Assembly: GCA_041650955.1 (NCBI GenBank)
Contig: JBAZKG010000003.1
Location: 42,766-106,765 of the forward strand
Length of the DNA: 64,000 bases
Reading direction: 5' to 3'
DNA from: Patescibacteria group bacterium
GTDB taxonomy: Bacteria; Patescibacteriota; Patescibacteriia; 2-12-FULL-60-25
A program made the translations under genes and the position numbers. Position 1 is the stretch's first letter, and each line of letters begins with the position of its first letter. Positions 4,393 through 53,733 of the stretch are shown one piece after another. The notes beneath the pieces were generated by a model that was given only the letters and a program-made list of their open reading frames with translations, searched no databases and was not told where the DNA came from.

Positions 4393-4462
4393 TCGTAGGG
4401 GCGATCCGGCGGAATAACGAATTACCTTACAGTATCGTAGGGGCGATCCGCCGGATCGCCCT
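4393..4462. repeat. REP elements upstream of RAYT (one truncated, one complete)
   Basis: CGTAGGGGCGATCCGGCGG (truncated), then CGTAGGGGCGATCCGCCGGATCGCCCT. Both carry the conserved GTAG head typical of REPs. Confidence 0.85.
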
Positions 4463-4535: not shown

Positions 4536-5102
4536 ATGAGCAAACACTTCAAGAGAAAATCGCCACGCCTGCCGACGTATACCTATTCTGAAGAAGGTTG
4601 GTATTTCGTCACGCTTTGCGTTAAAAATAGGCGTCCTATTTTTGGTCGGATTGAAAATGAGAAAATGATTTTGAGTCGAGAGGGGTATCTCGCAAAACAA
4701 GAATGGGTGAATACGTTTCACGTTCGAAAAAATCTTCGAAAAGATTCGTTTATCATAATGCCGGATCACATCCATATTATTATTCATTCGGTAGAAAATG
4801 GCGATCCGGCGGAACAGGGCGATCCGCCGGATCGCCCCTACGATACTGTCGAGTATGAGATTGGCAGAGCGCGTCGTATGATTTCTGGTTCAATTTCCGC
4901 TATCATCGGTCAATATAAATCATTGGTTACGAAACGAATCTGGCGAATGAGTAATGACAGAACGCCTATTTGGCAACGGAGTTTTTATGATCACATCATC
5001 CGAACGGAAAATGATCTTGAAAATCTTCGAGAATATATTCAATTGAATCCTGTAAATTGGCAATTGAAATGGGATCAGAGAAACCAGAATTGTTTTTATT
5101 AA
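4536..5102 (+). CDS. REP-associated tyrosine transposase (RAYT; IS200/IS605 Y1 transposase-like)
   Basis: HUH motif PDHIHIIIH. C-terminal WQRSFYDHIIRTENDLENLREYIQLNPVNW is typical of Y1_Tnp/RAYT proteins. An in-frame REP doublet encodes ENGDPAEQGDPPDRPYD between the HUH motif and the Tyr motif. Confidence 0.85.
   Translation: MSKHFKRKSPRLPTYTYSEEGWYFVTLCVKNRRPIFGRIENEKMILSREGYLAKQEWVNTFHVRKNLRKDSFIIMPDHIHIIIHSVENGDPAEQGDPPDRPYDTVEYEIGRARRMISGSISAIIGQYKSLVTKRIWRMSNDRTPIWQRSFYDHIIRTENDLENLREYIQLNPVNWQLKWDQRNQNCFY
4799..4842. repeat. REP doublet inside the RAYT coding sequence
   Basis: GGCGATCCGGCGGAACAGGGCGATCCGCCGGATCGCCCCTACG, read in frame as GDPAEQGDPPDRPY. Confidence 0.85.
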
Positions 5103-5225: not shown

Positions 5226-6116
5226 TCAGGAAGCGTAGGGGCGATCCGGCGGATCGCCTTTCTTCACAATCAACTCCTCAATATTTTCAGGGTTTAATTT
5301 CTCCAACCTCTTCGCCTCCTTCACATCAAACTCGCCAATCCTCGTCCGGCGGAGCGCCGTCAAATATGCGCCGACGTGGAGGGCTTCGCCGATATCGCGG
5401 GCAAGGGATCGGATATAGGTTCCGCTGGAGCAGGAGACATCGAACGACAGCATCGGCCATTCGTATGACGTGATATGCAGATCGTAAATTTTTACATCCT
5501 TCGTCGGCAAAACAACTCCTTCCATTTTTCCTTTTCGTGCCAGTTCATACAATTTTTTTCCTCCAACCTTTTTCGCGCTAAACGCTGGCGCTGTTTGCAC
5601 GTATCCGCCGCGAAATAAATCGAGTGCTTGTTCGACGTCATCTCGCATTGGGGGGATTGCTGATTGCTGATTGCTAATTACTGATTTTGATTTTGAGGAA
5701 TGAGCAATTGGCAATTGGCAATTAGTAATTATTCCTTCTACATCATCCGTATCACTCGTTGCCCCTAACATCGCCGTCGTCTGATATGTTTTATCAAGTC
5801 CGACAAGACCCGTGAGCATCTTTGTTCCCTTATTGATCCCGACGATCAGCAATCCTGTCGCAAACGGATCCAGCGTTCCGGCATGTCCCACACGCCGCGT
5901 CTTCGCAATCCTCCGCACGCGGTCAACCACATCATGGCTCGTCATTCCGGCTGGTTTGTCGATCAGGATGAGGCCGTCAAAAGAGGTGGGTGTAGGGGCG
6001 CACGGCTGTGCGCCCATCTTCGAGTTAGGGGCGTGGGAAGACATGGATGAGAGGGTACTGCATCTTGATAAAAACCTCAAAATGGTGTATGTTCGAATTG
6101 ACGGTGAACGCTTCAA
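5226..6116 (-). CDS. truB: tRNA pseudouridine-55 synthase TruB (start probably ATG 6017 or 6044, not the TTG at 6116)
   Basis: LILIDKPAGMTSHDVVDRVRRI...VGHAGTLDPFATGLLIVG is the TruB catalytic-Asp motif. REP sequence encodes the N-terminal MGAQPCAPT and the C-terminal GDPPDRPYAS. A family-K PPE lies in frame mid-gene. Confidence 0.9.
   Translation of the reverse strand: MKRSPSIRTYTILRFLSRCSTLSSMSSHAPNSKMGAQPCAPTPTSFDGLILIDKPAGMTSHDVVDRVRRIAKTRRVGHAGTLDPFATGLLIVGINKGTKMLTGLVGLDKTYQTTAMLGATSDTDDVEGIITNCQLPIAHSSKSKSVISNQQSAIPPMRDDVEQALDLFRGGYVQTAPAFSAKKVGGKKLYELARKGKMEGVVLPTKDVKIYDLHITSYEWPMLSFDVSCSSGTYIRSLARDIGEALHVGAYLTALRRTRIGEFDVKEAKRLEKLNPENIEELIVKKGDPPDRPYAS
5234..5258. repeat. REP element overlapping the truB 3' end
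   Basis: CGTAGGGGCGATCCGGCGGATCGCC. On the minus strand it is translated as the truB C-terminus ...GDPPDRPYAS. Confidence 0.85.
5656..5731. repeat. PPE-like element, family K (ATTGCTG / GCAATTG units), in frame inside truB
   Basis: ATTGCTGATTGCTGATTGCTAATTACTGATT ... GAGCAATTGGCAATTGGCAATTAGTAATTA. The arms are only partly complementary. The element encodes ITNCQLPIAHSSKSKSVISNQQSAI within TruB. Confidence 0.7.
5991..6014. repeat. REP variant at the truB 5' end
   Basis: GTAGGGGCGCACGGCTGTGCGCCC. It has the same GTAGGGGCG head as the RAYT-flanking REPs but a different palindromic stem. Confidence 0.85.
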
Positions 6117-28696: not shown

Positions 28697-28771
28697 TGGT
28701 AGCTCCAAGGGGAATTGAACCCCTATTAACGGCTTGAAAAGCCGCTGTCCTAACCATTAGACGATGGAGCC
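28697..28771 (-). tRNA. tRNA-Glu (anticodon UUC), CCA encoded
   Basis: Minus strand reads GGCTCCATCGTCTAATGGTTAGGACAGCGGCTTTTCAAGCCGTTAATAGGGGTTCAATTCCCCTTGGAGCTACCA. It folds as a cloverleaf with a 7-bp acceptor stem, anticodon loop TTTTCAA and T-loop GGTTCAATTCC. Confidence 0.9.
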
Positions 28772-44433: not shown

Positions 44434-44496
44434 AGTTGCGTTGTTGCGCCTGTCCTCCGTAGCTTTGGCGGAGGGGGATGGTTACGTGGTTGCGTA
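44434..44496. repeat. Atypical family F element: two same-sense arms flanking a small palindrome
   Basis: AGTTGCGTTGTTGCG ... CCTCCGTAGCTTTGGCGGAGG ... GGTTACGTGGTTGCGTA. The arms are direct repeats, not inverted. Confidence 0.7.
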
Positions 44497-53089: not shown

Positions 53090-53202
53090 GGTTCTACGAA
53101 TATACGAATGATACGAATCGGCGAATGACGTGCTACGAAAGCATTCGTAAATTCGTACCATTCGTAATTCGCTGATTCGTATCATTCGTATATTCGTAGA
53201 CC
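53090..53202. repeat. PPE, family H (long loop with extra TTCGTA units)
   Basis: GGTTCTACGAATATACGAATGATACGAATCGGCGAAT ... ATTCGCTGATTCGTATCATTCGTATATTCGTAGACC. Confidence 0.9.
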
Positions 53203-53235
53203 AAAAAATAAAAAACTCGACATCGCTGTCGAGTT
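53203..53235 (-). terminator. Intrinsic terminator of rnpB
   Basis: Minus strand reads AACTCGACA-GCGA-TGTCGAGTT followed by TTTTTATTTTTT. Confidence 0.85.
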
Positions 53236-53240
53236 GTTTG

Positions 53241-53701
53241 ATGCCAAGACCGAACGATAAGCCGAATTTTGTCCCCCGTCGTCCCCCCGTAGCTTTACGC
53301 GAAGGGGGGGTCTGGGAGGGCAATCATCTATCTGGGATGATCATTGCTGATCACCTCGTTGCGAGCGACCAGTCTCCCGACGTACGTCGGGATCTTGCTC
53401 TTGCACCGGAGAGGGCTTGCCGCGCTACGTTGTTACCAACGCATGAGAGATGTAACAGATGTCTTTCGACACCCATACCATCTCACTTTTCACTTTTCCC
53501 CCGATGGACATCGGGGTAGTATTGTCTCTGTGGCGCTTTCCCTGGGTTTATAGTGAACGTCGGGTACGTATCCTTTCGTTCTCTACCATATCCCGGCCGT
53601 CGTTAACGGCTCTCCATGAACCCCGATGGACATCGGGGAACGGTGTTCGGACTTTCCTCCCCGATGGACATCGGGGCGATTGCCTGTTCGACCTTGGCTT
53701 C
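53241..53701 (-). ncRNA. rnpB: RNase P RNA, bacterial type A (~460 nt)
   Basis: Minus strand starts GAAGCCAAGGTCGAACAGGCAATCGCC...GAGGAAAGTCCGAACAC (P1-P4) and contains GCCACAGAGACAA, GAAAAGTGAAAAGTG and GGTAACAACG...GGTGCAAGAGCAAG. It ends ...GACAAAATTCGGCTTATCGTTCGGTCTTGGC, which pairs back to the 5' end. Compare E. coli GAGGAAAGUCCGGGCUCC and ACAGAACCCGGCUUAUCGGUCAG. Confidence 0.92.
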
Positions 53702-53704
53702 GCG

Positions 53705-53733
53705 ATTGTAATGTATGTTTGGCAGAATGTCAA
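53705..53733 (-). promoter_or_regulatory. Sigma70-type promoter of rnpB
   Basis: Minus strand reads TTGACA-17 nt-TACAAT, with the mature 5' end GAAGCC 4 nt downstream of the -10 box. Confidence 0.8.

Follow-up and report, generated by a model that had tools for sequence, protein, structure and literature searches.

One 18-nt palindromic hairpin occupies three peripheral helices of the gene for RNase P RNA in a Candidatus Uhrbacteria genome

We analysed a 64-kb stretch of DNA (64,000 nucleotides of contig JBAZKG010000003.1, hereafter the window) in which rnpB, the gene for the RNA of ribonuclease P (RNase P), contains the same 18-nt hairpin in three places. The gene matches the Rfam model of bacterial class A RNase P RNA (RF00010, RNaseP_bact_a) with 162.8 bits against a gathering score of 100 (cmscan, E = 1.2e-50), and the match spans all 367 model positions (1‒367/367). 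A near-consensus promoter ends 9 nt upstream of the match, with 11 of 12 consensus positions, and the terminator has a 9-bp stem (Table 1), in agreement with a preliminary description that had read the locus as a type A RNase P RNA with a consensus promoter and a terminator. Both P4 strands (GAGGAAAGUCCG ... ACAnAAuuCGGCUUA) are present and are invariant in six aligned clade sequences, and the P4 core, P13/P14, P15, and P18 are conserved with respect to the class A model. J5/7 is filled by an extra hairpin, the P16/17 tip is a closed GUAC tetraloop, and the P6 pseudoknot is unannotated in the Rfam model. Type B RNAs are marked by the absence of P13 and P14 and by the presence of P10.1 and P15.1. 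Since P13 and P14 of the window gene are present and align to the class A model (the P14 loop is GUAA), and since the best model is class A, the RNA is of type A with one helix at a type-B-like position. Listed open reading frames (ORFs) across the region are short and overlapping and lie on both strands, and besides rnpB the sole gathering-level Rfam match in the window is a tRNA at 28700‒28771. The sugar transferase gene adjoining rnpB, located on ENA contig ERZ27247363 k141_2008197, has its closest named homologues in Candidatus Uhrbacteria and the Patescibacteria group, and rnpB lies upstream of this gene in five relatives too (sugar transferase 65‒78% identical; rnpB 109‒169 bits). Judged by its sequence, the locus is a genuine class A RNase P RNA gene, predicted to work, in the genome of an uncultured Candidatus Uhrbacteria organism of the Patescibacteria or Candidate Phyla Radiation (CPR).

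The 18-mer CCCCGATGTCCATCGGGG (also given as CCCCGAUGUCCAUCGGGG; core CCGATGTCCATCGG) forms a perfect 7-bp stem, CCCCGAU/AUCGGGG, closed by a GUCC loop, and has a G+C content of 72%. Its three copies are identical at 18/18 positions and are all oriented with GUCC in the RNA, so the earlier statement that one hairpin is used verbatim three times is correct. One copy had been placed at 53509‒53526, which is off by 10 nt; it lies at 53499‒53516. The covariance-model alignment, which also gave the significant class A match, located the helices of all three hairpins: two copies form P3 and P12, as had been proposed, and the third, formerly assigned to the P7‒P9 region, falls between P5 and P7, where the model treats it as an insertion. 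Each copy has its own flanks, and there is no target-site duplication. Beyond rnpB, a search of the 64 kb for further copies found none, and no fourth site exists there at up to three mismatches, where shuffles average 0.05 matches. Among 33 clade rnpB genes, only that of the window contains an internal 18-nt direct repeat; the next-longest internal repeats are 15, 12, and 12 nt, and shuffles give at most 14 nt. Tandem Repeats Finder (TRF) reported no tandem array within 53242‒53695 and arrays just outside, at 53095‒53198 and 53744‒53838.

Table 1 Features of the rnpB locus in the window.
Feature	Position	Strand	Basis
rnpB, bacterial class A RNase P RNA, 454 nt	53242..53695	-	cmscan RF00010 full-length match; synteny in five relatives
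Putative sigma-70-type promoter TTGACA-17-TACAAT	53705..53733	-	11/12 consensus matches; promoter function suggested by consensus
Intrinsic terminator AACTCGACA-GCGA-TGTCGAGTT, 9-bp stem and T run	53214..53235	-	Place and outer stem kept in L158 and clade
Cassette copy 1, whole helix P3	53659..53676	-	Exact match; covariance-model alignment; P3 sequences of relatives differ
Cassette copy 2, lineage-specific helix between P5 and P7	53621..53638	-	Exact match; modelled as insertion between the P5 and P7 5' strands
Cassette copy 3, helix P12	53499..53516	-	Exact match; covariance-model placement
Cassette-like perfect palindrome UCCCGAC-GUAC-GUCGGGA, P16/17 tip	53375..53392	-	Block 19% identical to L158
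Variable J2/4 helix (P19 position) CCCCCCCUUCGCGUAAAGCUACGGGGGG	53283..53310	-	Model insertion between the P2 3' and P4 3' strands

The element at the P19 position had also been described, at 53283‒53309, as a further insertion akin to a palindrome at 44454‒44474. This part of the description did not hold. Relatives have helices of other sequence and length at the P19 position, and the shared 10-nt match (44457‒44466) is at chance level, since the 27-nt element holds 18 different 10-mers with about 0.1 match expected for each, or about 2 in all. We therefore rejected a link between this helix and the palindrome near 44454.

To place the three hairpins in their clade, five syntenic relatives were combined with 31 loci retrieved from species-representative genomes by a gapped P4‒P7 segment pattern. 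Helices exist at all three cassette places in about 35 related Uhrbacteria/Patescibacteria rnpB genes, where they have other sequences and usually GNRA loops, and none of these genes carries such a triplicated hairpin. The P5‒P7 insert is 26 nt long in 27 distinct sequences, window included. Its seven stem pairs covary (at every one, 22‒27 of the 27 sequences are paired, by several types of pair), and its loop is GNRA in 23/27 plus three more on a one-position register shift; GUCC is found in the window only. P12 takes the form YCCGAU-GCAA-AUCGGR in L002, L003, and L005, which have the stem in common with the window and a GNRA loop, and its length is 18 nt in both the window and L002. A related-genome comparison, proposed together with the covariance-model search in the preliminary description, thus yields P3 and P12 helices without the 18-mer. 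From these alignments, the helices are ancestral and the sequence shared among them in the window is derived.

Several other peculiarities were seen in the rnpB genes of the clade. P3 and the P5‒P7 helix of L016 have the 12-mer GCAGCGATGCGG in common, including an unusual GCGA loop, and a 15-mer, TCAAAGGTGTGGGGG, is repeated in the 5' and 3' parts of the L014 gene. L004, L010, and L014 have ...AAAGGTGTGGGGG immediately ahead of the P4 strand, unlike the P3 hairpins of other relatives. Large lineage-specific insertions of about 50‒100 nt, absent from the window, occur in the P9 region (L004 and L037) or after P10/11 (L003 and L006), and the lower model scores of such relatives (109‒128 bits) are due to them.

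The closest relative, L158, whose neighbouring protein is 85% identical to that of the window, reveals how the sequence has changed. Outside three hairpin-tip blocks, the two rnpB genes are 93% identical (214/230 positions), whereas identity in the tip blocks is 44% for P12, 19% for P16/17, and 42% for P19. P12 of L158 is GUCCGGC-GCAA-GUCGGAU. Since the tip blocks diverged while the core stayed near-identical and helix lengths were unchanged, same-size stem-loops seem to have been swapped, not inserted. The comparison suggests that the exchange of stem-loops happened on a timescale on which the core barely changed. An insertion of the transposon or miniature inverted-repeat transposable element type was ruled out, since helix lengths are unchanged (the P5‒P7 insert has 26 nt with and without the cassette) and there is no target-site duplication. 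Three further contigs found via the neighbouring gene (L160, L161, and L162) carry no rnpB.

Since the sequence comes from a single metagenome-assembled contig and several conserved GNRA loops have been lost, one might suspect that the triplication was misread or misassembled, or that relaxed constraint has left a pseudogene. However, 18-nt repeats with unique flanks are far below the k-mers of assemblers (the contig name k141 suggests k = 141). Moreover, the covariance score resembles those of relatives (162.8 vs 162.9 and 169.3 bits), the core motifs are all intact in a gene 93% identical to L158, and the promoter and terminator are intact. We consider an artefact or a decaying gene very improbable indeed.

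The same hairpin was found in other genomes. An exact scan of metagenome contigs of the Joint Genome Institute (JGI) with the 18-mer returned at least 120 loci, and 107 contexts remained after removal of redundant flanks. In the 107 listed contexts, flank positions 1‒3 are Watson-Crick paired in 54%, 50%, and 50%, respectively, against about 25% expected if random. The contigs of the listed matches (708 kb) contain 22 additional sites with one or two mismatches, against an average of 0.13 for shuffled control palindromes. Compensatory variants also occur in the metagenome contigs (for example, UCCCGAUGUCCAUCGGGA, CUCCGAUGUCCAUCGGAG, and AGCCGAUGUCCAUCGGCU); the constant part of the family consists of the loop and the upper stem, and the outer pairs vary with compensation. 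The 18-mer is multi-copy in contigs such as L050, L060, and L094, and one exact match was found in viral contigs. Many of the listed sites cap terminator-like hairpins, and the 18-mer is part of several conserved elements with more than one hairpin. At least one group among the listed contexts, with GGTGGA-hairpin-TGAC, resembles a conserved coding motif. Rfam searches on 20 matching loci found no known family over the hairpin contexts except for one rnpB and tRNAs. That rnpB (L044, 236 bits) belongs to a different lineage and has the 18-mer as P3, which alone could be chance. Within the Uhrbacteria clade, the rnpB terminator of L037 is capped by a 16/18 variant, UCCCGAU-GGAC-AUCGGGA, which has the same 7-bp stem as P12 of L002, and the terminator tip of L021 is similar. 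L037 holds a tandem duplication at about 890‒1160, which takes in the capped rnpB terminator and about 150 nt of the sequence downstream; the two units meet at a masked stretch of N.

One carrier of the 18-mer, L057, encodes LpxA and LpxB above trusted cut-offs. Because CPR bacteria, to our knowledge, do not synthesize lipid A, L057 is not a CPR organism, and the identical 18-mer is thus present in both a CPR genome and a lipid-A-producing bacterium. A transposase between the inverted copies in L057 was considered and rejected; only a 188-aa ORF is present there, with an N-terminus that looks lipoprotein-like by eye. In relatives of the L057 organism, an element of about 90 nt with several hairpins, CAGGGCTGAAGCCCTG-AGTTATCCG-[18-mer]-CGAGACCTCGCCC-CAAAG-GGGCGGGC..., recurs at different loci with the 18-mer in either orientation (L092, L093, L106, L127, L151, L057, L062, L078, L080, L113, L054, L115, L087, L039, and L043). 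Rfam scans of five loci from this list (L039, L043, L054, L057, and L062) matched no family.

In a subset of sites, the hairpin lies in tRNA-like sequences. In L111, the 18-mer replaces the 17-nt anticodon arm in a partial 5' duplicate of tRNA-Pro, which equals the intact gene over 27 nt on the upstream side of the arm and 5 nt on the downstream side. The same replacement is found in two partial tRNA-Ala copies in L086, and in a tRNA-like skeleton in L041 cassettes form both the anticodon arm and the T arm. A complete tRNA-shaped gene at 794‒867 of L061 has an acceptor and D arm like those of tRNA-Pro and the 18-mer as its whole anticodon arm, with an 8-nt loop; ARAGORN reads its 'anticodon' as gtcc, and the Rfam tRNA model gives 44.7 bits. 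In the partial copies, the cassette is the 18-mer or a variant of it, and the tRNA loci show the same precise substitution of a stem-loop as rnpB. The tRNA link is confined to a minority of sites: of the 129 sites listed, 8 lie within 300 nt of a tRNA, with about 4 expected by our estimate, as tRNAs and their 300-nt flanks make up about 3% of the sequence. The L061 gene adjoins tRNA-Val, tRNA-Pro, and a duplicated 3' end of tRNA-Pro. An ORF of about 85 aa lies between tRNA fragments and an intact tRNA in L111 (about 100‒620, minus strand), L041 (1‒1116), L086 (about 2900‒3400), and L053 (about 2150‒2830), and it has a GIY-YIG domain according to Pfam in the first three and to a tblastn match with the L111 protein in L053. 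This layout is reminiscent of tRNA clusters that hold free-standing homing endonucleases, of which T4 SegB is an example (PMC2330249).

The orientation of the loop bears on the level at which the hairpin acts. The three rnpB copies are alike in orientation and identical at 18/18 positions, the hairpin occurs in tRNA-like molecules in sense orientation, and the combination of a constant loop and upper stem with compensated outer pairs is as expected of a recognition element. A single protein or RNA that binds hairpins, such as an additional RNase P subunit, a chaperone, or a tether, might accordingly have the three hairpins as its selected sites, and these would replace the GNRA contacts of relatives. 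However, GUCC and GGAC loops are both found inside the same conserved flanks and in paired tRNA fragments, and the terminator-like sites have no orientation bias: five have a T run 3' only (RNA loop GUCC), four have an A run 5' only (loop GGAC if they terminate the other strand), and four have both. With its loop orientation free, the family behaves as DNA and not as an RNA signal. Readings of the loop as a CsrA-type GGA or as a UGU of the type recognized by tRNA-guanine transglycosylase were dropped, since the loop occurs in either orientation. In rnpB, none of the clade relatives has the hairpin, and no candidate binding protein was identified.

The predicted fold also argues against a selected RNA-level role. 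Pairing of the P3 copy with the P5‒P7 copy is predicted at -30.2 kcal/mol, compared with -23.0 kcal/mol for the two local hairpins. The cross-paired form encloses a P4 strand, and the full-length minimum-energy fold of the window rnpB adopts it. Given that the loop is found in both orientations elsewhere, that the state is absent from relatives, and that cross-pairing would enclose the P4 strand, we consider an adaptive role of the hairpin in the RNA improbable. The swaps are probably neutral or slightly harmful to the ribozyme, because conserved GNRA tetraloops are lost and identical palindromes can cross-pair, and they would be tolerated, since they alter no more than the tips of peripheral helices and leave the catalytic core as it was.

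We favour, with a probability of roughly 0.6, a DNA-level copy-and-replace process in which a dispersed palindromic 18-nt cassette overwrote the stem-loops of three pre-existing peripheral helices. The replacement by a common palindromic module proposed in the preliminary description fits the swapped tip blocks relative to L158, the preserved 26-nt length of the P5‒P7 insert, and the dispersed family; no extragenic copy exists in the 64 kb. Short-patch ectopic gene conversion, or template switching in replication, between stem-loops with common GC-rich stem bases (CCCCG...CGGGG) could produce such copies. P3 has these basal pairs, as does the P5‒P7 helix in several relatives, and P12 comes close to them. 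The donor would be either an extragenic copy of the dispersed hairpin family or one rnpB helix that converted the others. The analysis shows what the gene is, where the hairpins sit in its helices, that their state is derived against relatives, that change is block-wise, and that the hairpin family exists elsewhere; we infer the conversion mechanism, the donor, and the fitness effect. A supporting point is that the window genome carries hairpin-mobilizing machinery and other palindrome families, as described below.

Several observations weigh against this reading. The figure of at least 120 metagenome loci was judged by internal controls in place of a matched control-hairpin comparison, and about one-third of the 107 listed contexts lie within long stop-free frames, which may be chance or coding. 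In the window, neither the 18-mer nor its 14-nt core has an extragenic copy, so no donor is seen, and in about 330 kb of Uhrbacteria-clade DNA the sole other match to the core is the L037 element. The 18-mer is without the GTAG head of the repetitive extragenic palindromic (REP) sequences of the window, and thus no enzyme is linked to the cassette. Since the L158 contig is cut at P10/11 and its rnpB lacks the 5' half, the timing of the P3 and P5‒P7 swaps is not bracketed. Finally, several clade members have P3 stems of the form CCCCGAYG...CRUCGGGG, and with P12 and P3 of relatives already near the cassette stem, point mutation and homogenization within the gene could suffice.

The last point leads to purely intragenic concerted evolution, in which the lineage's own P12 or P3 mutated and was copied to the two other helices, and the metagenome matches are unrelated. 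For P12, the stem CCGAU/AUCGG is common to L002, L003, and L005, so that only the loop and the closing pair would be new; the P3 stems just mentioned and the P5‒P7 helices that begin with CCCCG in L007, L034, and L037 point in the same direction, as do the 12-mer common to P3 and the P5‒P7 helix in L016 and a window without extragenic 18-mer copies. On the other hand, other contigs have the identical 18-mer, non-GNRA loop included, in multi-copy families that also show compensatory variants, a 16/18 variant sits on the rnpB terminator of the relative L037, and control palindromes yield 0.13 near-matches per 708 kb. We therefore regard an exclusively intragenic origin as unlikely. Since the P12 and P3 stems are already present in relatives, part of the identity among the copies may still be home-grown homogenization.

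A wider form of the copy-and-replace reading is that the 18-mer is a minimal hairpin cassette shared across phyla, which targets stem-loops rather than a sequence and overwrites tips in structured-RNA genes and terminators. We hold this to be a tentative and rather unlikely extension. The RNAs affected here would be the RNase P RNA, in its helices, and duplicated tRNA genes, in their anticodon and T arms. The overwriting may be started by structure-specific nucleases, with the small GIY-YIG proteins beside the swapped-arm tRNA copies as one candidate, and completed by template-switch repair.

The palindrome theme that the preliminary description saw in this genome was borne out by a Y1 transposase like the REP-associated tyrosine transposases (RAYTs), with GTAG-headed REP hairpins, and by other palindrome families. 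A 188-aa ORF at 4536‒5102 (plus strand) matches Pfam Y1_Tnp with 27.4 bits against a cut-off of 23, is of the IS200-like or RAYT type, and includes HUH-like MPDHIHIII and QRSFYDHIIR. Perfect palindromes with a GTAG head, GGGCGATCCG(C/G)CGGATCGCCC, flank it at 4441, 5105, and 5240 (region 4441‒5258); the flanking palindrome, GGGCGATCCGSCGGATCGCCC, is different from the rnpB 18-mer. From these sequences, the region at 4441‒5258 looks like a REP/RAYT system in a CPR genome. Another REP copy at 4817‒4837, inside the transposase ORF, encodes GDPPDRP, and the same peptide ends the TruB ORF (5226‒6116, minus strand; TIGR00431, 213 bits), where the REP lies at 5240‒5258. The REPs therefore overlap coding sequence. 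There are several families of perfect palindromes in the window, each with loop flips between copies. GTAG-GGGCGCACAGCTGTGCGCCC occurs three times and GGGCACGCCGCTGGCGTGCCC once (5996‒6015, 47343‒47362, 50009‒50028, and 38050‒38070), and CCCCTTCCTGCGAAGGAAGGGG and CCCTTCCCTGCGAAGGGAAGGG lie in conserved flanks, agct...ccggggg.aggtcgat (8458‒8479, 13885‒13906, 14032‒14053, 15520‒15541, and 15669‒15690). Dozens of intergenic sites have a 7- or 8-nt unit repeated about 4‒5 times and followed 10‒40 nt on by the reverse-complement array, which gives long hairpins built of repeats. The unit differs from site to site (for example, 3266‒3341, 26856‒26927, 31053‒31123, 39655‒39728, 47949‒48078, 53095‒53198, and 53744‒53838). 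Both flanks of rnpB carry such inverted arrays, and similar arrays flank the 18-mer in several metagenome contigs (for example, L049, L055, and L092).

The usual view is that the peripheral helices of RNase P RNA diverge gradually, through compensated substitutions; in this case, close relatives differ by what seem to be swaps of whole stem-loops, and one cassette fills three helices at the cost of conserved GNRA loops. The gene is thus a natural experiment on the exchangeability of the ribozyme periphery, and it cautions against reliance on the helix sequences of CPR RNA genes as phylogenetic characters. It also points to some process by which one hairpin is copied onto another. If the cassette did move between terminators, tRNA genes, and rnpB across phyla, it would represent a structure-targeting mobile unit of unusually small size, it would account for some 'tRNA-like' genes without a readable anticodon, and the window rnpB would be the first essential ribozyme hit three times.

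RNase P RNAs of CPR bacteria that have diverged, with some helices extended and others missing, are described in a paper that makes no mention of repeated hairpin cassettes (PMC8172020). The window rnpB resembles class A RNase P RNA (RF00010) in its full-length match and in having its own promoter and terminator, and it differs in the extra covarying P5‒P7 helix, the helix at the P19 position, and the three identical stem-loops. Type B RNase P RNAs carry P5.1 between P5 and P7, the position at which the window and 26 other sequences have a covarying 7-bp helix. A repeat family spread through the genome and lodged in an essential ribozyme gene has a precedent in the STRR repeats, which Vioque reportedly described in 1997 within rnpB of heterocyst-forming cyanobacteria (NAR 25:3471; cited in PMC2858038). 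They sit in helix P12. However, STRR repeats are tandem arrays of heptamers that lengthen one helix, whereas the window has a discrete 18-nt palindrome in three stem-loops with length kept, and TRF found no tandem heptamer array in a peripheral helix of the window gene.

REP/REPIN elements mobilized by RAYT (Y1) transposases are a known system (for example, PMC3337134). Like a REP, the 18-mer is a short palindrome rich in G+C; it is multi-copy in some genomes, often lies at terminators, and forms doublets in places. It is unlike REPs in that GT[AG]G is absent at the three rnpB copies, no extragenic copies exist in the 64 kb, and the Y1_Tnp ORF of the window is flanked by a different palindrome. 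In the 107 listed metagenome contexts, GT[AG]G lies within 10 nt 5' of the 18-mer in 8, against 4 for the control placement, which is no clear enrichment. Identity as a canonical REP was rejected, since the 18-mer has no GTAG head. REPs are generally species-specific, unlike the 18-mer, which is identical in a CPR genome and a lipid-A-producing bacterium.

The Rickettsia palindromic elements and the GC clusters or hairpin elements of mitochondria invade genes, including RNA genes, and add about 30‒150 nt of length. Like the cassette, they are palindromes tolerated in functional genes at permissive places, and they are selfish; the cassette differs in having 18 nt and in taking the exact place of a stem-loop already there. 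Quasipalindrome template-switch mutation and small hairpin-loop inversions classically act within a single hairpin. Such template switching would explain the GUCC/GGAC flips in identical flanks and those in the palindrome families of the window, and it offers a route by which a stem-loop could be copied over another with a similar stem; the copying between hairpins is what we infer here. A literature search on the hairpin sequence, as DNA, as RNA, and as shorter cores, found no paper, and a single palindrome that replaces three helices, or that recurs in tRNA arms and terminators elsewhere, appears to be undescribed in the searchable literature. The chance that the 18-mer is a new mobile unit that targets structure is modest. 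What belongs to a known kind here is a repeat element that colonizes permissive helices of a ribozyme.

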